64,000 nucleotides of DNA from Dictyostelium discoideum. Lineage: Eukaryota. Of the stretch, positions 395-16,133 are shown in pieces. Position 1 is the first letter of the stretch, and each line of letters begins with the position of its first letter. The stretch lies in the NCBI GenBank assembly GCA_000004695.1, contig CM000152.2, positions 1-64,000 on the forward strand. The letters are read 5' to 3'. The notes under the pieces are model-generated. The model was not told where the DNA came from, did not search any database, and saw only the letters and a list, made by a program, of their open reading frames with translations. Both the position numbers and the translations under genes were made by a program.

Positions 395-2536
395 ATGGAT
401 TTAAAAAAAGTGGATTGCATTATTTGTAAACAACCAATTAAATGTTTCAAAGATATAGTTATACATTTTATTAAACATAATGATCGTTGCCCAATTTGTT
501 TAAGCAAATATACATCATTTTCAAAAATGTATGCTTTAACAGGTCATTATTATTCACAAGGTTGTAATAATAAAAAAAATAATATAAAGGGTGAACAAAA
601 ATTGCAAGATGAATTTTATCAAAGGTTATCAAAGATTACAGGCGATAATATTATATACCCAACCAACTTATCCGATGACCCTTTCAATCATATGAGCCAA
701 CAAAATTTAAATGAAAATTTTATAATTGATGAGAATAATAATAATTTAGAAAATGAAAATGAAAATGAAAATAATTCATTTGAGGATATAGGAAATATAT
801 TAAACCAAAATGGACAAGAAAATGATGATATTGAAATTTTAAAAGAAAAAGAAAATGGAAATTTAGGAAAAGAATTAAATAATTATGAAATTGGATTTTT
901 AAAGTTGGGTTTAGAAAATGCTAAATCGTTAAAATTTATGCAACAAATTTTGGATTTTTTTAAAAACAATATAAATGCAATTAATGAAATTAGATATACA
1001 ACAAAGTATATGGATTCTATATTTTTAGCAAATTTACCTATCGATGGTCACTTTTTGAGTTACAAATATTATGAAGAGTCAATTTTTTATTATGAAATTT
1101 GTTCAGTTGTAAAATTATTAATTGAAAAAAAAAATTTTTTAGAATATTTAGATTTCTCAAAAGACTATGAGCAAGGTATTTATAAAAATTATAAATCTGG
1201 AGAACAATTCAAAAAAATAAAAAATTCAATTTCAGATAAATTTATTTTATTAAGAATATTTAGTGACGGAATGAGTCATCAAGGTAGATCAGATTATACT
1301 ATAATGGTGGATTTTGAAAATTATAATGGTCCATTTTTTAAAAATAACAAAATTGTTTTATTTATTGTTCCAAAAGAATGGTTTCACAATATACATCAAA
1401 CAATTAAAAAATTATTTTCAGCGCAATTTAATAATAAATTAATAATTAAAGATAATAATGGAAATGATTATGAAATTATACCATATGGATTAACAATGGA
1501 TATACCAGAATTTAGATCATCTTGTAGGATTAACCATTATAATTGCAATGAGTTCTCATGTCATACATGTGATAAAGCAAGAGGTGTCGATTATTTATTA
1601 AAAGAAGGAAATTATAGAAATCAAAAAGACATTATTGACTTTCACAATTCAAAACCAAATAAACAAGATTTTTTAAATCCTCAAAATAAAATTTTAAAAT
1701 TAGAAACAGAACAAAAAATGAAAAAAATCGGCATTACAGATTATGACAGATCTTGGGTAGAAAATTTAAAAATAAATTATTTGTACTTACAACCTGATAT
1801 TTTACACAACATATTATTGGGTATTGTACAATGGGTTTTAAATTATATTTTCAAAAAATATAAGGATCAAATTACAATTTTTATAAAAAAATTAAAAGAA
1901 GCTAAAATCATTCCAGATCATTTACCACCATCAGAATCTTTATTTGGTGTAAAAACAAGAAAAGGTAGAGAGAATAGAAGCATATTATATTATATTTTAT
2001 TTTTTACTAAATCAAATGTATCAAATGATGATTTCTTATTATTAGAAGAAATGGTTCAGATTACTTTTTTATTATATCAAGATTCTTTCGACGAAGATGA
2101 TTTGGATAAAATAAATTATTTAGTTAAAAATTTTAATAAAAAAATATTTATGATAATACCAAATGAACCAATCAACTTTCACCTTTTATTACATTATCCT
2201 TTATATATAAAAAATTGGGGTGCACCAAAATTTACATCAGCAGAGAGATTTGAAGCACAATTTAGTAAAATTAAAGACCTTTTGACAAACAATACAAACA
2301 ACCAAGATCAACATAAATTTGAAAGAGTAACAAAAATATTAATGGCAACATTTTTAGATAATTTTAACAATCTAAAAGAAAAAGATTATGACAATAATGA
2401 TTTAATTTTAGGGCAAATAATTAAAAAAAATGAAAATATTTATTTAAAAAATAATATTTTATCAGACATTAACTTGCATTACAAAAACATTGAAAATATT
2501 CAATTTAAGAAAAAGCTTTTCAAGTATAGTATTTGA
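395..2536 (+). CDS. hypothetical 713-aa zinc-finger protein, possibly a transposase (Transposase_21/CACTA/KDZ-like)
   Basis: Intact ATG-initiated ORF with Dictyostelium-like composition. N-terminal C-x2-C...H-x4-H finger (CIICKQPIKCFKDIVIHFIKH). Internal Cys cluster (SCRINHYNCNEFSCHTCDKARG). A D-x-(M/L)H-x3-LG-like motif (QPDILHNILLGIVQWV) recalls the MHL motif of En/Spm-type transposases. It lies right next to a retrotransposon cluster. Family assignment is by eye only. Confidence 0.5.
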   Translation: MDLKKVDCIICKQPIKCFKDIVIHFIKHNDRCPICLSKYTSFSKMYALTGHYYSQGCNNKKNNIKGEQKLQDEFYQRLSKITGDNIIYPTNLSDDPFNHMSQQNLNENFIIDENNNNLENENENENNSFEDIGNILNQNGQENDDIEILKEKENGNLGKELNNYEIGFLKLGLENAKSLKFMQQILDFFKNNINAINEIRYTTKYMDSIFLANLPIDGHFLSYKYYEESIFYYEICSVVKLLIEKKNFLEYLDFSKDYEQGIYKNYKSGEQFKKIKNSISDKFILLRIFSDGMSHQGRSDYTIMVDFENYNGPFFKNNKIVLFIVPKEWFHNIHQTIKKLFSAQFNNKLIIKDNNGNDYEIIPYGLTMDIPEFRSSCRINHYNCNEFSCHTCDKARGVDYLLKEGNYRNQKDIIDFHNSKPNKQDFLNPQNKILKLETEQKMKKIGITDYDRSWVENLKINYLYLQPDILHNILLGIVQWVLNYIFKKYKDQITIFIKKLKEAKIIPDHLPPSESLFGVKTRKGRENRSILYYILFFTKSNVSNDDFLLLEEMVQITFLLYQDSFDEDDLDKINYLVKNFNKKIFMIIPNEPINFHLLLHYPLYIKNWGAPKFTSAERFEAQFSKIKDLLTNNTNNQDQHKFERVTKILMATFLDNFNNLKEKDYDNNDLILGQIIKKNENIYLKNNILSDINLHYKNIENIQFKKKLFKYSI

Positions 2537-3092
2537 TAACATAGTAAACACATTAATACCAATACAAATCGATTCGTCTAACTATCTTATAATTTATAAG
2601 TGCCATGACCAATTTTCAATAAGTAAAAAAAAAAAATGAAAAAAATTCGTTGAACTTATTTACATAACTTTTACATTTTTACGTAACTTTTTAATTTTTT
2701 TTTTTTTTTCTTTTTTTCCAATTTTCTTTTTTTTCGGTTGGAAATTATAGGATTTTAAAAAAAATTAAAAAAATATTATAAAAAAAATGACTCACAATAA
2801 TTCCGCATCATTTGAAACACCAAATAGAAGTGGTAATTATGTAAATAGATCATCTTTAACTTCACCAACATCACCAATAACACCAATACCATCTCTTATT
2901 TTAAATCAAACTGATACCTCCATAGGTCCACAACGTACTGTTAGAAGACAACAAAGACCTCAAAGACCAAATGCAAGTCATCACAGCAAAGAAAAATGCA
3001 CCTTTAAAGCAAATTTAAAGAAAAGTTGATTTAAATTGGATTTAAATTGAATTTAAAGCCGCGTTTAAAAAATTCATTTTTAAGGTAATTTT

Positions 3093-3490
3093 TGTTAGAG
3101 ACTCAAATCTAAATTAATTTAAAGTTAGTATGAGCTCAACAACGTAACAAATTCGCGCGTCTCCATGTAAAAATATTTCATTTAATTTTAATTTTTATTT
3201 TTTAATTTTTTATTTTTTCAGTTGAAAAATAAAAAATTAAATTAAATAAAATAAAATTAAATTAAAATTTAAAAAAAATAATAAAATAATAAAAATTCTG
3301 ATTTTCGGTTTAGTTTTCATAACGCCCTTACTTTTAATTATCTCTTTTATGTATGTTTACTTTTATGATATTAGTCTTTCACTCTTTCTATCCTTCATAT
3401 TAAAATACATTACTTTAAAGATTGGACTGTTTGATTTAAGATTGAACAAATGTGACAATGGATTGAAGATTAGTGTGAGTGACTTTTACA
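3093..3490 (+). repeat. 5' LTR of the Skipper-like element
   Basis: Starts TG, ends CA. Near-identical copies at 9645-10044 and (truncated) 10045-10429. Confidence 0.85.
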
Positions 3491-3793
3491 CTTTTTTTTT
3501 CTAATTTTAACATAAAACAAATACATTAAAACAAATAATTAGATACAATCCTTATATTTCGTATACAATGACACCTCATGATGAAGAAGTCGACTCTTCA
3601 GATTAGAGGAATAACAGTAGTATTTAAAACAAAATAAAAATGCATTACAATGGCCCTTCTGTTTGCAAAATTAACGCTGTACTGCTTAGGCGGTACAACG
3701 ACACTTCCTACTCACATTGTAAACATGCATCTTTTATAAAGTAATATAAAACAAGATTGTATCAATTAATTTAATAATAATGCTCAAAAACAA

Positions 3794-4023
3794 AGACACC
3801 ACAATATAAATTATTAGTGGAATAACAGTTAAACAAAGACACCACAATATAAATTATTAGTGGAATAACAGTTAAATAAAGACACCACAATATAAATTAT
3901 TAGTGGAATAACAGTTATATTGATGCATTGTTATAATTAAAATAATTTAAGATAATATTTATTATCAATTAAATAATATAAAGACACCACAATAAAAATA
4001 TATTAGTGGAATAACAGTTAACA
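3794..4023 (+). repeat. tandem about 43-bp repeats (4 full copies plus a diverged 5th) in the retrotransposon leader between 5' LTR and gag
   Basis: The unit aaagacaccacaatataaattattagtggaataacagttaa repeats at about 3794, 3837, 3880 and 3980, with a related ggaataacag at 3601. Confidence 0.8.
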
Positions 4024-4153
4024 TATATTAATACTTATATTTAATTATTTAATTAAAAATTAAATTAAATTAAATTATATAATTAAATTATATAATTTAA
4101 ATTATAAAATTAAATTATAAAATTAAATTATATTTAATAAATTTTATATATAA

Positions 4154-5317
4154 TTGTTGGTGAAAGTCATGTCATCAACTACTACTCCTTCAAAGAAAGC
4201 CATCCGTAAAGCCAAAGTGTCTTCCACCGCCAAACGTGCCGCTGAAGTGACAACCGCCTCCGATGATGCTATTACTGTTCAAGTAAAATCAAAAAAGACT
4301 CTTCGTCCCACTGAAGTCGATGATGAAATTTATTCAACTGAAAGCACTGATGTATCCGACGTCGAAGTCAGAGAGAAAGTGCCAAAGAAATCAAAGACCA
4401 ATTCCATTGAAGCTAAAACCATTGACGCTTTAAAAAATGCTGCCACTGCTGTCATCTTCATGAATCTCTTTACCATCCACTGCTCCCAGAATGGTGTTGA
4501 ACCAACCTTGAAGACCATTATGGACAATGGTGCTGCATCAAATGAATTATTTCAATTGCTTCAACCTACACACAATGAATCAGTTAAGAACAACGATAAA
4601 ATTGAAGGTGAAACATTGAAGAAGCTAATACACCGTAACTTTAGATCCAAGAATTTGGTTCCATTCAAAACTGACTACGAAGCTGCCAACACTAAAGTAG
4701 TCGAAGCTATTAACCATCGTAACTGCTACTCAGCCCAAGATGTTATAAAAAACATCGAAGCCATTATGAGTTACCACAATATAATTAATCCGGTGTATCT
4801 AATCCATGGTACTGCTGAAGTTCAATTAGAGTATCTAAGATCAATTTTAGATAATAATATCCTTGCTTTGTTAAAGATGGTCGTACCAGACTGGTTACAA
4901 ACTGATGTTGCAATCAAACTCAACACTCAAACCGATATCACCGAGTGTCGTGAAGCCATCACCGAGTTGGTTCTTAACAATGCTGATAAGTTCTCGAGAA
5001 GAAGACCTTCCGATTCCGCATCGAATAATGATGAGAAGTTTCCATTAAAAAAGAATCATGCTACTCCAAATCATAACTCTCATAACAGGAATTCCTTTGA
5101 TGCACAAGCTGATAAGATTAGAGCTGCAATATTACCTGAAATAAGAAAAGACTCTAAGGTAGACCTCAAAAAGATAAGAAGCAGTTTCATCGTTTACCGT
5201 CAGAGCAAAGGCTACTGTCTCAATTGTGGTAAATCAAATCACTCCACATCTACATGTAGAATTGATCCGGTCGAAGCCAAAGCCAATCCAGGTCCATCAG
5301 CCAAAAAGCAACAATGA
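4154..5317 (+). CDS. gag: Gag (capsid/nucleocapsid) of the Skipper-like element
   Basis: 387-aa ORF with a C-terminal CCHC zinc knuckle (CLNCGKSNHSTSTC). A more likely initiator is the ATG at about 4169 (MSSTTTPSKK). It ends at a UGA that is in frame with the downstream pol ORF. Confidence 0.85.
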   Translation: MLVKVMSSTTTPSKKAIRKAKVSSTAKRAAEVTTASDDAITVQVKSKKTLRPTEVDDEIYSTESTDVSDVEVREKVPKKSKTNSIEAKTIDALKNAATAVIFMNLFTIHCSQNGVEPTLKTIMDNGAASNELFQLLQPTHNESVKNNDKIEGETLKKLIHRNFRSKNLVPFKTDYEAANTKVVEAINHRNCYSAQDVIKNIEAIMSYHNIINPVYLIHGTAEVQLEYLRSILDNNILALLKMVVPDWLQTDVAIKLNTQTDITECREAITELVLNNADKFSRRRPSDSASNNDEKFPLKKNHATPNHNSHNRNSFDAQADKIRAAILPEIRKDSKVDLKKIRSSFIVYRQSKGYCLNCGKSNHSTSTCRIDPVEAKANPGPSAKKQQ

Positions 5318-5407
5318 CTCGATGAAGGTGATGAGTCCAAGTCAAAGATTTTAAATAAAAATTATAAAATTTCACAATATCATCACCTTGAGGATAATGA
5401 TTACCCA

Positions 5408-7981
5408 GTGAACAAAGATTCACTTTATACTCTTAACTCTTTTTATAATCAAAACATTGTTAAACAGTTACATCAACAAAGCCAGCAACATGATGTTCAT
5501 AAAAACATCAACAAACTTAAAGAATACGTCAAAGTCTCATATGGTATAAAACTAGTTCCTGATACAACCGTTCCAATTCCAAAAGCTGTTGAATCAGAGA
5601 TGAAGTATAAACCACAGAAGATTGAATTTAATACTCCAACAGAGTTAACAAATGTTCAAGATAAAAACTATACTGTAAACATATTCAATCGTCCAAAGAT
5701 ATTAAATTCTAGTAAAAAATTAATTAACGATGAAGAAGATGAATTGCTTTACACAATTAAATTCGATAAAGAAACAAACAAACCAATCATCTCATTATTA
5801 CATAGTACTGGTACAAGTGATACTGCTCTCATTCCGACTCTCAAATGTTTAATTGTTCCAAACAGAGAAAACATGGATAAACCCAAGATTATAATTAACT
5901 CTCATTCCAAAGAAAAACAATTCAAATTAATTCTCGATACTGGAAGTAATGTTAGTTTAATCAATAAGAGGTTGATTTCAAAAGATATGAAGAACCACGT
6001 TCACAAAACGAAAGCCAAGATTAACTTCCCGCTACTAGACGTCAAAGAAGAGTTTGTTGAACAAATCAATATACAAGTTAACAATGAAATTCATAACTTC
6101 TTTATTATAGAATTGGATATCATTGATGTACTTTTCGGTAATGATATCCTTAAGGACTCTATCATTAACCAAAAAGATAAAATAATCAAGTTGAATAACA
6201 GTACATACAAAATTAATTATCAACAGTCGAATCAATTACATTGTAATGTAAAAGCTCCAAGAAAACATGTTACCGTATCCAATGATAATCAGTCACAGCA
6301 ACATAATCTACTGGATGATGATGAAGATATCAAAGAACAAGTTACAAAGTTTGTTGAAAGCATCCCATCACAACTTTGTGATATACTGGTTAAAACTAAT
6401 CCAGAAGAAGAAGAGATACAAGCAGTACGTGATTTCATTAATGATTCATTCGAAGATGTTATAGTAGATAAACTTCCTGATATTCCAGATCAGATTAACA
6501 ATTCCAGAAGAGGTAATATTATACATAGTATCATTATAAAGAAAGATCAAGATGTTGAACCAACAAAGAAACAAATCTATTACTCAACAGATGATCATAA
6601 GAGACATGTCGAAGAAATGGTTCTCAAATTTATAGATTTAGGTATTATCAAAAGATCAGAATCAAATTACTCATCTCCAATCATGTTATTAAAGAAGAGA
6701 GATTCATGGCGCGTAGTCCACGACTATCGTCAACTAAATAAAGTCACTGTTAGAGACGATCATCCATTCACTCCGGTTGATAGTCTTTTAAATCAATGTA
6801 AAGATTCAAAGCTTTTCTCAAAGTTTGACATGATTATGGGTTATTTTCAAGTGTTAATTAATCAAGAACACGCAAAGTACACCGCTTTCATTACACATAT
6901 TGGTAAATTTGAATATACTAGAATGCCACAAGGTTTAGTCAACTCTCCATCCACATTCGCCAGATTGATGGTCGAAATATTTGGAAAAATCAAAAGTTTA
7001 TTACAATACTTTGATGATCTTTTGGTTCATTCAAAACTCGACTACATGGTACATTTCATTGAAATCATTAGAATGCTTCTATATTGTAGAAAGTACCTAT
7101 TATTCATTTCAAGAGAAAAGAGTGAAATGTTAAAGACTGAAGTTGATTTCCTTGGTTTTCACATTCATAAAGATGGTATATCTCCAAGAGCTGCAAAGGT
7201 TAGAGCTATCTCTGAGTTACCTGAACCAAGAAACGCCAAAGAAGCTGAAGCTGCATTAGGTCTTTTTGGATTCTTCAGGAGACACATTGAAAATTACGCT
7301 GAAAAAACCTATCACCTTTCCAAAGAATCAAAAGGGAAAAACAAGAAAACTCTTTCTGATGAATCACTCAAAGAATTCAATAATCTAAAGAAAGAGTTTG
7401 AAGGTGAAAATATTGTCGCTATTCCAATTGAACAAGATAACTCCATACCAATAGATATCGAAAAGGTTAAAGCATCAACAGACATGCCAATCCATTCAGA
7501 TAATAATAATCTAAACAATGGTAGTTTTCACTTGTATTGTGATGTTAGTGATAAAGCATTATCAGGTGTATTATATCAAATTCAAGGTGATAAATTCAAA
7601 GTCATTTGGTTTCACAGTAGAAAACTTACTGATACTCAAAAGAGGTACAGCATAGGTGATAGAGAGTTCCTTTCAATCATTGATTCTCTAAAGAAGTTTC
7701 AACATTTATTAATTGGTAAAAAGGTTTCAATCTACACTGATCACCAAAATCTTACATATATTATCAATAAGTCAAACGATAAACCGTTCACAAAGAGACA
7801 AGATAATTATATGAAATATATTAAAGAATTTGATTATGAATTAAGACATATAAGTGGTAAAAAGAATGGTATAGCTGATTTCTTGTCTCGTAAATATGAT
7901 AATTTCCAATGGGATGAATCGTTTTTAAATAAAATTAAGGAAGAACAAATCAATTCTCAATGGCTATTAGAGATGAAATAG
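5408..7981 (+). CDS. pol: Pro-Pol polyprotein: aspartic protease, reverse transcriptase, RNase H
   Basis: Same frame as gag and open from 5318 directly after the gag UGA (the track start at 5408 is a GTG). Protease LILDTGSNVSLI, RT motif YFDDLLVHS, RNase H block (LYCDVSDKALSGVL...IYTDHQNL). Ends at a single UAG at 7979-7981. Confidence 0.88.
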   Translation: MNKDSLYTLNSFYNQNIVKQLHQQSQQHDVHKNINKLKEYVKVSYGIKLVPDTTVPIPKAVESEMKYKPQKIEFNTPTELTNVQDKNYTVNIFNRPKILNSSKKLINDEEDELLYTIKFDKETNKPIISLLHSTGTSDTALIPTLKCLIVPNRENMDKPKIIINSHSKEKQFKLILDTGSNVSLINKRLISKDMKNHVHKTKAKINFPLLDVKEEFVEQINIQVNNEIHNFFIIELDIIDVLFGNDILKDSIINQKDKIIKLNNSTYKINYQQSNQLHCNVKAPRKHVTVSNDNQSQQHNLLDDDEDIKEQVTKFVESIPSQLCDILVKTNPEEEEIQAVRDFINDSFEDVIVDKLPDIPDQINNSRRGNIIHSIIIKKDQDVEPTKKQIYYSTDDHKRHVEEMVLKFIDLGIIKRSESNYSSPIMLLKKRDSWRVVHDYRQLNKVTVRDDHPFTPVDSLLNQCKDSKLFSKFDMIMGYFQVLINQEHAKYTAFITHIGKFEYTRMPQGLVNSPSTFARLMVEIFGKIKSLLQYFDDLLVHSKLDYMVHFIEIIRMLLYCRKYLLFISREKSEMLKTEVDFLGFHIHKDGISPRAAKVRAISELPEPRNAKEAEAALGLFGFFRRHIENYAEKTYHLSKESKGKNKKTLSDESLKEFNNLKKEFEGENIVAIPIEQDNSIPIDIEKVKASTDMPIHSDNNNLNNGSFHLYCDVSDKALSGVLYQIQGDKFKVIWFHSRKLTDTQKRYSIGDREFLSIIDSLKKFQHLLIGKKVSIYTDHQNLTYIINKSNDKPFTKRQDNYMKYIKEFDYELRHISGKKNGIADFLSRKYDNFQWDESFLNKIKEEQINSQWLLEMK

Positions 7982-8173
7982 AATCCAAATTTATGCATTG
8001 AAGAAATTAATGATATCTGTTACCTTAGTGAAGATGGGTTCAAGAAATTAATCATCATAGATAAAGAAACTATTCATACCGTCATTAGAGAATATCACGA
8101 TACCAAATATAGTGGTCATCACGCTTTAGATATCACATACAATAATATAAGACAAGATTACTATTTCAAAGAA

Positions 8174-9601
8174 ATGTTTTCTATTATCAAGAGGTACATA
8201 AAGTCTTGTGCAACATGTCAATTGAACATTAACCGTAAAGATAATGGTATACTCCAAAGTTTAGAAATTCCCTTTGAAGTTTGGAGAGATATATCAATCG
8301 ATTTCTTATCGCTACCAAAAACAATGTATGCAATAAACGGATTTACAGTTGAAGTCGATCAAGTTTGTGTCATTGTTTGTAGATTATCTAAAATGGTTCA
8401 TATAGTTCCATGTCATAAGACAATAGATGCCCAACATACTGCTCAATTATTGTTGAATCATGTGTTCAGACTCCATGGTTATCCAAGAACAATCGTCTCC
8501 GATAGAGATCCAAGATTCCTTTCAGAAATATGGGAGAGATGGGCAAAGACGATGGATTCTAAACTCAAGATGACTGTGGCACACAGAGCACAAGCTGATG
8601 GTCAAACTGAAAGAATGAATAGAGAAATTATTAGAATATTAACTAAAGCCTCAACAGAGTATGGGGAGAATTGGTCAGATATCATTCCACTTATTGAATT
8701 TGCAATGAACTCATCAATGAGCAAGTCTACAAAGATGTCACCATTACAAATCGTTTATGGATTCAATCCACCAACTCCCGTTAATCATTTCAATTCATTA
8801 ACAAAGACTCGTATACCAATGAGCAACATCAAAAAGATTGTCCGTGATAATATACTAGATGCCCAAATCAATGCTCAAAAGTACTACAACCGAGGTCGTG
8901 GTGATGTTATCTTCGTAGTCGGAGAAAAGGTGATGGTTAAAAGAAAATTCTTCCAAACTAACCTTTCAAAAGATCTAATCTCTCACAAACTTGAATCCAA
9001 GAATTGTGGACCATTCATAATCACTGCCGTTCATGGTAATAATGTAACACTCGATTTAGTAGGTTATCCAAAGAAACACAATGTGTTCAACAAGGATCAA
9101 ATCGTAAAACTATACGAGGACAGTGAGTGGTTAAGAGAAGAGATATCGATGCCCGAACCTGAGGAGATGGACGAAGCAAGTTACGAAGTTGAAAGTATTC
9201 TCAATCACGATAAAGTCAAAAAGATGTACCTAGTGAAGTTCAAAGGTTACCCAGAACCTGAATGGATCAAAGAAGTCGATACAGACTGTGAAGAGTTAGT
9301 CAGAGAGTATTGGAATAACGTGCAGAAGAAACAATTGAACTCAAGAAGAGAAAGAGAGAATGTAACTACAGAAGCCGTTGAGCCAATTGTGTCACCTCCA
9401 CTCTCCCAAGAAGTTCAAAGGTCCCAAACATTGCAACCAACTACTTCAAGACAACAAAACTCCAACTCAAATCAAATAAACCAATCAAAGAAAAGAAAAT
9501 CAAGAAATCAAAATACTTCAAGTGATGATGATGAACTTGATCTTAGTTTACAAATTAAAACAACAAGATCAGGAAGAAAAGTTACACCGAAGAGATTATA
9601 G
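8174..9601 (+). CDS. int: Integrase with C-terminal chromodomain
   Basis: Same frame as pol. The frame is open from 7982 and the upstream part encodes the HHCC zinc finger (HTVIREYHDTKYSGHHALD...CATCQ). DDE core (VSDRDPRF...), then a chromodomain (YEVESILNHDKVKKMYLVKFKGYPEPEWIKEV). Confidence 0.88.
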   Translation: MFSIIKRYIKSCATCQLNINRKDNGILQSLEIPFEVWRDISIDFLSLPKTMYAINGFTVEVDQVCVIVCRLSKMVHIVPCHKTIDAQHTAQLLLNHVFRLHGYPRTIVSDRDPRFLSEIWERWAKTMDSKLKMTVAHRAQADGQTERMNREIIRILTKASTEYGENWSDIIPLIEFAMNSSMSKSTKMSPLQIVYGFNPPTPVNHFNSLTKTRIPMSNIKKIVRDNILDAQINAQKYYNRGRGDVIFVVGEKVMVKRKFFQTNLSKDLISHKLESKNCGPFIITAVHGNNVTLDLVGYPKKHNVFNKDQIVKLYEDSEWLREEISMPEPEEMDEASYEVESILNHDKVKKMYLVKFKGYPEPEWIKEVDTDCEELVREYWNNVQKKQLNSRRERENVTTEAVEPIVSPPLSQEVQRSQTLQPTTSRQQNSNSNQINQSKKRKSRNQNTSSDDDELDLSLQIKTTRSGRKVTPKRL

Positions 9602-9626
9602 TCCACCTCTAAACCAAAGCTAGCCT

Positions 9627-9644
9627 AAAGAAGGAAGGGGAAGG
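9627..9644 (+). promoter_or_regulatory. polypurine tract (plus-strand primer site) abutting the 3' LTR
   Basis: aaagaaggaaggggaagg lies immediately upstream of the TGTTAGAG LTR start. Confidence 0.7.
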
Positions 9645-10044
9645 TGTTAGAGACTCAAAACTAAATTAATTTAAAGTTAGTATGAGCTCAACAACGTAAC
9701 AAATTCGCGCATCTCCATGTAAAAATATTTCATTTAATTTTAATTTTTATTTTTTAATTTTTTATTTTTTCAGTTGAAAAATAAAAAATTAAATTAAATA
9801 AAATAAAATTAAATTAAAATTTAAAAAAAAATAATAAAATAATAAAAATTCTGATTTTCGGTTTAGTTTCCATAACGCCCTTACTTTTAATTATCTCTTT
9901 TATGTATGTTTACTTTTATGATATTAGTCTTTCACTCTTTCTATCCTTCATATTAAAATACATTACTTTAAAGATTGGACTGTTTGATTTAAGATTGAAC
10001 AAATGTGACAATGGATTGAAGATTAGTGTGAGTGACTTTTACAT
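9645..10044 (+). repeat. 3' LTR of the Skipper-like element
   Basis: About 99% identical to 3093-3490. Confidence 0.85.
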
Positions 10045-10429
10045 AGAGACTCAAAACTAAATTAATTTAAAGTTAGTATGAGCTCAACAACGTAACAAAT
10101 TCGCGCATCTCCATGTAAAAATATTTCATTTAATTTTAATTTTTATTTTTTAATTTTTTATTTCAGTTGAAAAATAAAAAATTAAATTAAATTAAATTAA
10201 ATTAAATTAAAATTAAAAAAAATAATAAAAATTTAGATTTTCGGTTTAGTTTCGTAACGCCCTTACTTTTAATTATCTGTTTTATGTATGTTTACTTTTA
10301 TGATATTAGTCTTTCACTCTTTCTATCCTTCATTATTAAAAAAACATTAGATTAAAGATTGGACTAGTTCGATTAAAGATTGAACAAATGTGACAATGGA
10401 TTGAAGATTAGTGTGAGTGACTTTTACAC
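10045..10429 (+). repeat. additional tandem LTR copy (lacks the first 3 nt, slightly diverged)
   Basis: It directly follows the 3' LTR with TAGAGACTC...GACTTTTACAC. There are small indels in the internal A/T-rich part. Confidence 0.8.
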
Positions 10430-10559
10430 TATAAATACAACCAAATTTAATTCTACGATAGGTCTTAACAAATATTGTTAAATATTATTTATAATTTTTG
10501 TTTTAAATAATGTGTTTTATTGAAAAAAAAAAAAAAAAAAAAAAAAAAACATATGAAAA

Positions 10560-10835
10560 GTGAAAAATTTTTCAAAAAAAATAAACTTTTTTCGAAATAA
10601 ATGAATTTATTCCGGGATAACTCGATCTTTTTTAAAATATGCTGAGTCAATTATAATTAATTCAATTATCCACTGATAGGTCCATTGTGAATAAAATTAA
10701 AAAAAATAATAATAATATGGCCAATGAAAAATTTTTCGAGAAAGATTGATCTTTTCCGGGATAACTCGATCTTTTTCAAAATAACTTTTTTTATTCAGAA
10801 TTAATTCGATTATTCACAGAAAGGTCCAATTTAAT
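10560..10835 (+). repeat. tandem duplication of an about 135-bp unit (CCGGGATAACTCGATC...AGGTCCA)
   Basis: Two adjacent copies at about 10604-10690 and 10757-10830 share CCGGGATAACTCGATCTTTTT and TTAATTC(A/G)ATTAT(C/T)CAC(T/A)GA(T/A)AGGTCCA(T/A)T. Confidence 0.6.
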
Positions 10836-10988
10836 TTAATTTAATTTTTTATTTTTCAACTGAAAAAATAAAAAATTAAAAATTAAAAATTAAAATTAAA
10901 TGAAATATTTTTACATGGAGATGCGCGAATTTGTTATGTTGTTGAGCTCATACTAACTTTAAATTAATTTAGTTTTGAGTCTCTAACA
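10830..10988 (-). repeat. inverted partial LTR (first about 160 bp of a Skipper LTR) on the minus strand
   Basis: The reverse complement of 10830-10988 matches TGTTAGAGACTCAAAACTAAATTAATTTAAAGTTAGTATGAGCTCAACAACGTAACAAATTCGCGCATCTCCATG... Confidence 0.8.
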
Positions 10989-11159
10989 CATAATATAATG
11001 AATAATAATATTTTTAAAATTCTTTAATTTTTCTCTGCAATTAATGCATGATATGTTTTTTAAATTAATTTTGTTTGCTGGGCGGAAATTAAAAATAATA
11101 TTTTTTTTTTTTTTTTCCTCGAGTTTTTACGGTTTTTTTTTTTTTTTTTTTTTTCATTT

Positions 11160-11300
11160 TATTCAAATTTTAGCAAGTCAATATAGGATTTAGCATTAAG
11201 GTTTATATATTTAGGGATTTACCTTTATATATTTAGGGATTTACTCCATTTTTAAACTAAATGCTAAATCCTATATTGACTTGCTATATTGCTAAAATTT
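11160..11300. repeat. inverted repeat (about 25-bp arms GCAAGTCAATATAGGATTTAGCATT / AATGCTAAATCCTATATTGACTTGC) flanking a 2x direct repeat TTTATATATTTAGGGATTTAC
   Basis: Seen directly in sequence. Possible transposon terminal or hairpin structure. Confidence 0.6.
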
Positions 11301-11439
11301 ATATATATTGAGGGATATCCCCATTTTCAAAAAATGACGGGAACCTATGACCCTGTCTATACCTTTTTAGTTTTTTTTTTTTTTAATTTTCTTAATTTTT
11401 TTTTTTTTTTTATTTTCTTAATTTTTTTTTTTTTAATAA

Positions 11440-11760
11440 ATTTGAAATAAATAGTGTAATAATTGATTTAAAATGCATTTTAAAAAATGTAATTAATAAA
11501 AGCTTAAAAAAGGATTAATAAGTAATTTTAAATTACATTAAAAATAACTTTTTTAAATTTATTATAAAGTGATTAAAACAGTTAAAAACCGCTTTATAAT
11601 AAATTTAAAAGGTCATTTTTAATGTAATTTTAAATGACCTTAAAAATATCTTTAAAACTACCTTTTTAAAAAGCACCATTAAAGCCAATTTAAAGCAAAT
11701 TTAAATTGAATTTGCTTTAAATTGGCTTTAAAGGTGCATTTTTCTTCTCTGTGTATATTT
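11440..11760. repeat. cluster of nested palindromes (for example CTTTAAAGCCAATTTAAAGCAAATTTAAATTGAATTTGCTTTAAATTGGCTTTAAAG)
   Basis: Long perfect or near-perfect palindromes read directly from the sequence. Confidence 0.55.
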
Positions 11761-11860
11761 TTTTTATTTTGAATTTTGAAATTTCATTTGATTTTTGCTC
11801 AAATAAAAGTAAATTATTTTTTTTTACAACTAATTATTTGTTATTGAATAACAATGAATG

Positions 11861-11918
<58 letters not shown>

Positions 11919-12104
11919 AAAAATTAAAAAACTAAAAAATGTTATTTGGTTTTAAAAAAAAAAATCAAAAAAAAAAAAAAAAAATCTTATATTTTAAATA
12001 GATAAACTTTTAAACATTAACTTAATTGTTTTAATTCAAAAAATTTTTGAGGTATACCAAACCAATCTAAAATAACTAATTGGTTTAAAAAAACATTTGG
12101 AAGT

Positions 12105-14409
<2,305 letters not shown>

Positions 14410-14640
14410 TATTTTTGACTTTAATAAAAAAAATAAAAAAAAATAAAAAAAAAAAAATAATTTGAAAAAAAATAAAAAAATAAAAATAAAAAATAAAAAT
14501 AAAAATAAAATTCTTTTATTTCGGGAATTTTGAGAACTATTATCACCACAAAAAAGAAAATTAGATCATATCTTAAGATAGGGTTTTTTTTTTTTTTTTA
14601 AATTTAAATAAATATTTAATTTTTTTTATTTTTTTTTATT

Positions 14641-14787
<147 letters not shown>

Positions 14788-15086
14788 TTTATAAAAAATT
14801 TAGACACTTTTTTTTTTTATACCTTAATTTTCTATTTATTATTTTAATACTGACAATATCAATTACAAAAAACCTCAATTTATTTTTTACATCAAATTTA
14901 ACACCTACATCACCATTGTGATGAAGTTCTTTGGTCAAAAAAATTTTTATTATTTTTATTTTTTTTTTTTTTAAAATTTTTTTTTTTAATTTTTTTTTTT
15001 TAATTTTTTTTTTTTTTAATTTTTTTTCAACACGCACATTTCAACTTTTATATATAACCTAAAAAACCACCCATATACAAAACAAA

Positions 15087-16133
15087 ATGAATAAAACCTT
15101 ATTAGTAGTTTTATTAGCATTAATTTTATGTGTTCAATACAGTTATTCATTTATGTTTGAAGTTAGAGCAGCAGATGAAAAATGTATTGTTGAAGAATTT
15201 AGACAAGACACATTAGTCAATGGTAAGTTTGAAGTCTCTGACAGATTATCTAAAAATATCGCCTTCCAATATGAAGTCGTTATGGCCAGTATGCAAATGA
15301 AATTTTATGTATGTATATTATTATTCATATTTACCTTTTTTTATTTATTTATTTATTTTTATTCTATTTTTATTTATTTATTATAGATTTGGAATATTAA
15401 CATTACTTCTAATTTATTTTAGGTTCGTGGTCCAACTGGTGATTTAATTTTAGTTAACCATGATGCATCAACTGGTGTTATTGCATTCAATGCTCAAGAA
15501 GCAGGTGATTATTCATTCTGTTTCTTGGACAATTACAGACCAGGTAAGAATATTTAAGAAAATATAAATTTAAATATATTTATTCATACTAACAACAAAA
15601 TTATTTTCTTTTTCTTTTTTTCTTTTTCTTTTTTTCACTTTTACAATTCAATATAATTCAATTTTCAAAATTATTTTATTTAAAAATAAAAAACAAACTT
15701 TATTTTTTTTTATTTTTTTTTATAAATCAAAATCTTATGAAACAACAATTTAAACTATGGTGATTAATAAATTATAATAATAATAAAAATAACTATAAAT
15801 AATAAAACAGGTGCACAAGCAATGCCATTAAGTAGAACAGTATCATTAGAGATTAAAACAGGTGTCGAAGCAAATGATTATTCAGATGTTATCACTAAAG
15901 GTCAATTAAAACCATCAGAAATTGAACTTAAAAAGATTGAAGATGTTGTAGACTCAATTAAAGTTGAAATCTTATACATGAAGAACAGAGAAGAAACAAT
16001 GAGAAACACAAATGAATCTACCAACTCTAGAGTTGCTAATTTATCAATTTTTTGTTTCTTTGTTTTAATTGGCTCTGCAGCTTTCCAAATTAATTATTTG
16101 AAACGTTACTTCAAACAAAGAAAATTAATTTAA
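15087..16133 (+). CDS. p24/emp24 (TMED) cargo-receptor family protein, three exons
   Basis: Exon 1 is 15087..15308 (signal peptide MNKTLLVVLLALILCVQ, GOLD-domain start FMFEVRAADEKCIVEEF). Donor GTATGT. Exon 2 is 15423..15543 (VRGPTGDLILVNHDASTG...FCFLDNYRPG). Donor GTAAGA. Exon 3 is 15811..16133 (coiled region, TM segment, C-terminal KRYFKQRKLI). Exon 1/2 junction is moderately confident. Confidence 0.75.

Follow-up and report, generated by a model that had tools for sequence, protein, structure and literature searches.

The window analysed here, 64,000 nt of Dictyostelium discoideum DNA, carries between positions 3093 and 10044 a retrotransposon whose gag, protease-reverse transcriptase-RNase H and integrase regions share one reading frame and are separated only by a UGA and a UAG codon. 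This raises the question of whether both stops are programmed read-through sites, as a sequence-only reading of the locus had proposed, or whether one or both are products of decay. The comparison with other copies and species pointed to a different answer for each stop: in all likelihood, this is a defective Skipper-1 element in which the UGA is a conserved read-through site and the TAG is private nonsense decay. All features described below lie on the forward strand.

Judged by its sequence, the element (6951 nt) belongs to Skipper-1, a Ty3/gypsy chromovirus of D. discoideum, and has kept its full length but become defective. Compared at the protein level, its pol shared 98.2% identity across 1333 aligned residues with two Skipper pol proteins of AX4, DDB_G0281535 and DDB_G0267356 (1322 aa each), and more than 40 further D. 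discoideum pol matches were found at 85-96% identity. Skipper-1 is the prototype Dictyostelium chromovirus, with a published consensus of 6998 bp and LTRs of 390 bp (PMC5006619), and consists of ORF1 (gag) and ORF2 (PR-RT-RH-IN-CHD) (PMC5006619, PMC5633606). The present copy matches Skipper-1 in its LTRs (~390 bp), length (~7 kb), polypurine tract, polypyrimidine stretch in place of a primer-binding site and in-frame gag/pol stop, and Pfam and motif searches recovered the domain order PR-RT-RH-IN with a candidate chromodomain, together with the CX2CX4HX4C knuckle of gag. It differs in that ORF2 is not continuous but interrupted by the TAG at 7979-7981, where other copies are unbroken, indicating a mutated member of Skipper-1 rather than a variant architecture. 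Besides this AAG-to-TAG change where RNase H meets IN, which is private to this copy, about nine further residues of its pol are private. The window held no other Skipper internal sequence, only LTR fragments.

Translation of 4154-9603 showed a single frame (4154-9601) in which TGA 5315-5317 and TAG 7979-7981 are the only internal stops, with a terminal stop at TAG 9599-9601. The frame is open directly after each internal stop, as had been noted for the UGA that ends gag and for the UAG that ends the second ORF; the identification as a Skipper-like chromovirus with gag, PR-RT-RH and IN in one frame was likewise correct.

Gag spans 4169-5314 (382 aa from the ATG at 4169), carries its zinc knuckle at 5216-5257 and is identical to the annotated D. 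discoideum protein KAM9948594.1; it had no match in Pfam. The PR-RT-RNase H region (5318-7978) follows in frame with gag, and contains the protease motif DTGS (5927-5950), the reverse transcriptase domain RVT_1 (6692-7165) with its YFDD motif (7007-7027), and RNase H (RT_RNaseH, 7523-7831), so that both RVT_1 and RT_RNaseH lie between the TGA and the TAG. The integrase region (7982-9601) begins with the HHCC finger (Integrase_H2C2, 8057-8227; residues 26-82 after the TAG), followed by the DDE core (8282-8620; rve 8363-8587) and an SH3-like domain (SH3_Tf2-1, 8921-9106). The HHCC finger starts upstream of the ATG with which the integrase ORF opens (8174) and spans it, in agreement with the earlier placement of the finger before the called integrase ORF. 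The candidate chromodomain at the integrase C-terminus (9182-9316) gave a sub-threshold Pfam match (E = 3.5e-4; 20.9 bits against a gathering score of 25.1); the D. purpureum orthologue has a precomputed PF00385 match.

We then considered the flanking structures. The 5' LTR (TG...CA, 3093-3490, 398 nt) and the 3' LTR (9645-10043, 399 nt) were 99.0% identical over 399 alignment columns, with three substitutions (3108, 3159 and 3317) and one 1-nt indel (3270), which bears out the earlier estimate of about 99%. Identity to the LTRs of the other retrieved D. discoideum copies was only ~84%, indicating that this copy belongs to a distinct LTR sub-lineage. At the usual position of the tRNA primer-binding site stands a polypyrimidine stretch, CTTTTTTTTTCT (3491-3502), which fits the description of Skipper-1 (Spaller et al. 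2016, PMC5006619). In the leader, a 43-nt unit is repeated in tandem ~3.4 times (3769-3916), and an extra degenerate copy lies at 3957-4020. The polypurine tract that had been reported as clear is AAAGAAGGAAGGGGAAGG (9627-9644), directly before the 3' LTR. No target-site duplication was identified: the 5' flank is ATTTT, and TAGAG and CTATA follow the 3' LTR and a third LTR, respectively.

To decide between programming and decay, the sequence-only reading had suggested comparing both stops across Skipper copies. This comparison separated them: the UGA was conserved in 8/8 other D. discoideum copies, and the UAG was present in none of the eight. The sequence around the UGA (5315-5317) is CAA-CAA-UGA-CUC, and its core, CAA-UGA-CU, is a leaky termination context. 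Although the final ~60 nt of gag vary among copies and contain insertions or deletions, the TGA is kept throughout. D. firmibasis has a TGA at the equivalent position and in the equivalent frame, although its gag is only 23% identical, and D. purpureum has TGA CTA at the equivalent gag/pol position; the gag of the retrieved D. purpureum copy was degraded, and its gag frame was dropped as evidence. The stretch from the UGA to the next in-frame AUG comprises 94 codons; it was open in seven copies, and pN/pS between copies was 0.17-0.24. Purifying selection on 94 AUG-less codons in frame with gag fits their translation by a ribosome continuing from gag. Programmed read-through at the gag UGA, as had been proposed, is thus well supported by the comparison of copies and species. 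In the citing literature, stop-codon read-through between gag and pol of Skipper is attributed to Leng et al. 1998; on that attribution, read-through of the UGA is the published Skipper design and not a new finding. The present data add multi-copy, multi-species support to the long-standing proposal that Skipper pol is expressed in this way.

A search for RNA structure 3' of both stops had also been suggested, and it yielded a candidate at the UGA only. A long-range stem-loop was predicted at 5318-5392 (MFE fold, z = -2.39), in which 5318-5321 and 5326-5334 pair with 5380-5388 and 5389-5392; the main stem has 9 bp and starts 8 nt after the UGA, and the hairpin loop is 45 nt long and AU-rich. 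The conserved context can be defined as CAACAA-UGA-CUCG with a stem 8 nt downstream, the 5' arm beginning 8-9 nt past the UGA and the 3' arm being the AUCAUCAC (YHH) motif ~50 nt further on. Every D. discoideum copy retained the stem; two one-sided changes are compatible with wobble pairing, and none is compensatory. Since its 3' arm also encodes the conserved peptide YHH(L/I)ED, the conservation of the stem could be protein-driven. In D. firmibasis, a similar stem was predicted with its register shifted (z = -3.84), and the D. purpureum copy examined gave no comparable fold. A small local hairpin across the UGA (GACUC...GAGUC) was rejected because GAAUC in 4/8 copies breaks the pairing. After the TAG, no excess folding was found: the 120-nt fold had z = +0.63, and 141/200 shuffles folded at least as well.

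The gag-pol junction of murine leukaemia virus consists of a UAG, an 8-nt spacer and a pseudoknot. Skipper-1 resembles it in having gag and pol in the same frame with a single stop, and in a predicted stem that also lies 8 nt after the stop. It differs in using UGA instead of UAG and in its predicted structure, a long-range hairpin whose loop is AU-rich and 45 nt long, and the two share neither sequence similarity nor an Rfam match. We regard it as a speculative and rather doubtful idea that the Skipper stem might act as a simple-hairpin stimulator of read-through, unlike the viral pseudoknot. Another parallel is provided by the fission-yeast chromoviruses Tj1, Tcry1 and Tosmo1-3, which have a conserved GAA-TGA-CT(A/G) at the gag-pol stop (PMC10085805). 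The 7-nt context AA-UGA-CU, strictly conserved at the Tj1/Tosmo/Tcry read-through stop (PMC10085805), is shared with the in-frame gag/pol UGA of Skipper-1, whereas the preceding codon is GAA in these elements and CAA in Skipper-1. They also belong to another host lineage, and fungal Ty3/gypsy pol matches were less than 30% identical.

Other routes from a conserved UGA to pol are downstream reinitiation, non-AUG initiation or selenocysteine insertion at the UGA. Dictyostelium has selenoproteins, and the case for read-through itself comes from sequence comparison, so that these routes deserve consideration. They are nevertheless improbable, given that the 94 codons after the UGA lack AUG, lie in the gag frame and are under purifying selection, that AA-UGA-CU is a recognised near-cognate read-through context, and that an Rfam scan of 3000-10500 returned no family at E <= 1, SECIS included.

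The TAG at 7979-7981 gave a different picture. The codon is AAG (Lys) in 8/8 other D. discoideum DNA copies, which are 85-95% identical overall, and the homologous codon encodes Asn both in D. purpureum (AAC) and in D. firmibasis (AAT). At the protein level, 30 annotated proteins have K there, the two from AX4 among them. These results indicate that the TAG is a nonsense mutation confined to this copy, with AAG as the ancestral codon. An independent assembly (GCA_054883475.1, locus L009) was 99.83% identical to the window and matched both junction sequences exactly, indicating that the stops are not sequencing errors. The pol of this copy has nine other private amino-acid states, among them Q at 6863, where P is invariant in 35 copies, and S at 6527, where N is invariant in 26. 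The TAG thus appears to be decay, a single private base change and not a regulatory device.

The proposal that both stops are programmed, yielding Gag, Gag-PR-RT-RH and full Gag-Pol-IN in graded amounts, drew on the observations that each stop is single and in frame, that the frame reopens at once and that the LTRs are 99% identical; the presence of the TAG in two assemblies is also consistent with it. The sequence-only reading had itself named sense codons in other copies as the finding that would mark this copy as mutated, and this is what the AAG, Lys and Asn states show for the UAG. An A at position +4 after UAG is a tight termination context in eukaryotes, and the TAG stands in precisely this context (UAG-A), with no downstream structure. 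The argument that the element is too young for its stops to be decay fails as well. With 3-4 differences per 398 nt between the LTRs, ~20-27 substitutions are expected in the 5424-nt coding sequence, and 5.3% of possible substitutions create stops; this predicts ~1.1-1.4 nonsense mutations, with a probability of at least one of 0.66-0.76. One nonsense mutation is therefore expected by chance, and programming of both stops is very unlikely. Low-level spontaneous read-through of the TAG is possible. The opposite view, that both stops are decay in a family whose gag-pol ORF is normally uninterrupted, as in DGLT-A or Tf1, has a negligible chance of being right, given the TGA at the end of gag in all eight copies and two other species, a junction that no annotated protein crosses unless it is skipped, and the two ORFs described in the literature (PMC5006619, PMC5633606).

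Under the preferred reading of a conserved UGA and a decayed TAG, a functional Skipper-1 would encode gag and then PR-RT-RNaseH-IN-chromodomain as two units in one frame with one UGA between them, and occasional ribosomal read-through of the UGA would produce a small share of Gag-Pol fusion protein, in the manner of murine leukaemia virus and the fission-yeast Tj1/Tosmo elements. In this copy, an A-to-T change has converted the Lys codon AAG to TAG at the RNase H/integrase boundary, and its polyprotein would end before integrase. The leftover integrase ORF, starting within its own zinc finger, would be left without a means of expression. The TAG-bearing copy might still move with the help of proteins acting in trans, or serve as a source of Gag-PR-RT-RH lacking integrase; this is a conjecture to which we give a fairly low probability.

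The findings on the element are already known, and none is new; their use lies in annotation. The appropriate annotation for the TAG-bearing copy is that of a Skipper-1 pseudo-element whose pol carries a nonsense mutation, and gene models in which the TAG is spliced out, such as the 1338-aa product at this locus in GCA_054883475.1, are artefacts. An 11-aa gap in the AX4 proteins (GNIIHSIIIKK) was considered as a real deletion and set aside; it is probably a mini-intron artefact of the gene models, and the segment is present in most other proteins.

The window is AT-rich (24% G+C) and carries a complete LTR retrotransposon at 3093-10044. Its 5' LTR (3093-3490) and 3' LTR (9645-10043) are 99.0% identical, differing by three substitutions and one 1-nt indel. 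A polypyrimidine run lies directly 3' of the 5' LTR in place of a tRNA primer-binding site, and the polypurine tract AAAGAAGGAAGGGGAAGG lies immediately 5' of the 3' LTR. One reading frame extends from 4154 to a terminal TAG at 9599-9601, interrupted only by a TGA at the end of gag (5315-5317) and a TAG at the RNase H/integrase boundary (7979-7981). Pfam placed RVT_1 and RT_RNaseH between these stops, and Integrase_H2C2, rve, a Tf2-type SH3 and a weak chromodomain match 3' of the TAG, with the H2C2 finger (8057-8227) beginning 5' of 8174, where the integrase ORF has its first ATG. In LTR identity, the single frame with two stops and the position of this finger, the sequence-only reading had described the element correctly. 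Between the 5' LTR and gag, the untranslated leader holds a tandem array (3769-3916) of about 3.4 near-perfect copies of the 43-nt unit AAACAAAGACACCACAATATAAATTATTAGTGGAATAACAGTT, with an extra degenerate copy at 3957-4020; a short inverted repeat, CCAC...GTGG, occurs in each unit.

The translated pol matched more than 40 Dictyostelium discoideum proteins at 85-98% identity, the closest being DDB_G0281535 and DDB_G0267356 of strain AX4 (1322 aa each, 98.2% identical); the orthologues of D. purpureum and D. firmibasis were about 64-66% identical. The gag protein was identical to KAM9948594.1 from a D. discoideum assembly. Published Skipper-1 is a chromovirus of 6998 bp, with LTRs of 390 bp, whose primer-binding site is replaced by a polypyrimidine stretch; ORF1 is gag with a CX2CX4HX4C knuckle, a single ORF2 encodes protease, reverse transcriptase, RNase H, integrase and chromodomain, and just two of about 60 copies are intact (PMC5006619, PMC5633606). 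Sequence and architecture place the element in Skipper-1, from which it departs only in the continuous ORF2, interrupted here by a point mutation (the TAG at 7979-7981).

Both stops were compared with the DNA of eight further copies, drawn from four assemblies of D. discoideum or D. cf. discoideum, and with a single copy from D. purpureum and another from D. firmibasis. The gag TGA was kept in all eight, inside a conserved CAACAA-TGA-CTCG, and the roughly 60 nt of gag upstream were variable, with indels. The D. firmibasis gag, only 23% identical in protein sequence, still terminates at a TGA in frame with pol, and the pol frame follows directly; in the D. purpureum copy, gag is degraded and the pol frame is headed by TGA CTA. 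From the TGA to the first in-frame AUG, 94 codons stay open in seven copies with a pN/pS of 0.17-0.24, indicating that they are translated in the pol frame, for which continuation from gag is the simplest route. Programmed read-through, which had been proposed at both stops, is well supported at the gag UGA by conservation of the stop (8/8) and by coding constraint 3' of it.

In the minimum free energy fold of 5306-5425, positions 5318-5321 and 5326-5334 pair with 5380-5392 (z = -2.39), and the predicted 9-bp stem core begins 8 nt 3' of the UGA, a spacing identical to that in MuLV. The predicted stem is kept among the D. discoideum copies: two changes affect one side only and still allow wobble pairing, and none is compensatory. 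D. firmibasis has an analogous predicted stem, shifted in register, with an identical 3' arm AUCAUCAC (z = -3.84); no comparable fold was found in the D. purpureum copy examined. The predicted fold is suggestive only, since its 3' arm doubles as coding sequence for a conserved YHH(L/I)ED peptide. Leng et al. in 1998 reportedly proposed a pseudoknot soon after the Skipper gag stop.

At the codon homologous to the TAG, all eight other D. discoideum copies have AAG; D. purpureum has AAC and D. firmibasis AAT. Identity across the surrounding 200 nt is 94-97% within D. discoideum. Thirty annotated proteins run through the site (...WLLEMK-K-NPNLC...), and none of the 30 ends there. The TAG is private to this copy, and the proposed read-through before the integrase is refuted by the sense codons of the others, the outcome that the sequence-only reading had itself named as refuting. 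The base 3' of the TAG is A, which in eukaryotes makes a termination-favouring context. Folding of 120 nt around and downstream of the TAG was no better than that of shuffled sequence (z = +0.63). Decay is compatible with 99% LTR identity, because that identity corresponds to about 0.4-0.5% change per copy after insertion, or 20-27 substitutions over the 5424 nt that are coding; stops arise from 5.3% of the substitutions possible in this AT-rich coding sequence, which gives an expectation of about 1.1-1.4 nonsense mutations. Nine further pol amino-acid states are exclusive to this copy; among them are P-to-Q at 6863, a position invariant across 35 copies, and N-to-S at 6527, invariant across 26. 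The TAG is a nonsense mutation, AAG to TAG, confined to this copy.

Sequencing error as the source of either stop was rejected: the matching locus of a second assembly, the source of KAM9948594.1 (GCA_054883475.1, CM142509.1, about 80 kb from a chromosome end; 99.83% identical to the window), carries both junctions unchanged, and both stops are therefore real.

Most ribosomes would terminate at the UGA and yield Gag, and a minority would place a near-cognate amino acid there and continue through protease to chromodomain. In this copy, read-through ribosomes would halt again at the TAG, giving a polyprotein without integrase, and the copy would thus be incapable of autonomous transposition. The AA-UGA-CU context of the gag stop is the same as in the fission-yeast chromoviruses Tj1, Tcry1 and Tosmo, where this read-through context is strictly conserved (PMC10085805). 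In principle, MuLV and Tj1-like chromoviruses have the same gag-pol read-through design as Skipper. PMC10085805 cites Leng et al. 1998, on Skipper, among elements with in-frame gag-pol stops; the design is already published for Skipper. The element presents no new kind of feature.

Inside the element, the second assembly differs from the window by two substitutions only (9446 and 9477), where it encodes the residues of the AX4 proteins (P, R); at these sites the window's side has therefore either changed very recently or is in error. In the public annotation of this copy, a span of 4205 nt (9229-13433 of that locus; window 5397-9601) yields a product of 1338 aa, about 63 codons too few; the model must therefore contain introns, presumably introduced to avoid the TAG. 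Likewise, 11 aa (GNIIHNIIIKK) in the reverse transcriptase are omitted from several other Skipper models; all such models are artefacts of gene prediction within transposon ORFs.

A third Skipper LTR (10044-10430) adjoins the 3' LTR; it is missing the initial TGT and shares about 93% identity with the LTRs of the element. About 400 nt beyond it lies an inverted 161-nt LTR fragment (10829-10989) that matches the beginning of the 3' LTR at 98% identity. No target-site duplication of the element was found. Together these observations suggest that Skipper copies inserted into one another or recombined. Just 5' of the element is a 713-aa ORF (395-2536) with no Pfam match, flanked in the second assembly by perfect 112-nt inverted repeats (3708-3819 and 6814-6925 of the locus). 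The right-hand repeat (window 2982-3093) ends exactly at the Skipper 5' LTR, and the left one falls in or before the 100-N gap opening the window; the whole resembles a DNA transposon, bounded by TIRs, that lies directly against Skipper. In another D. discoideum assembly (GCA_054859385.1, locus positions 1899-15743), three tandem Skipper-1 copies, one full and two partial, are joined head to tail with shared LTRs, with an additional inverted integrase gene upstream, a cluster typical of centromeric Skipper arrays.
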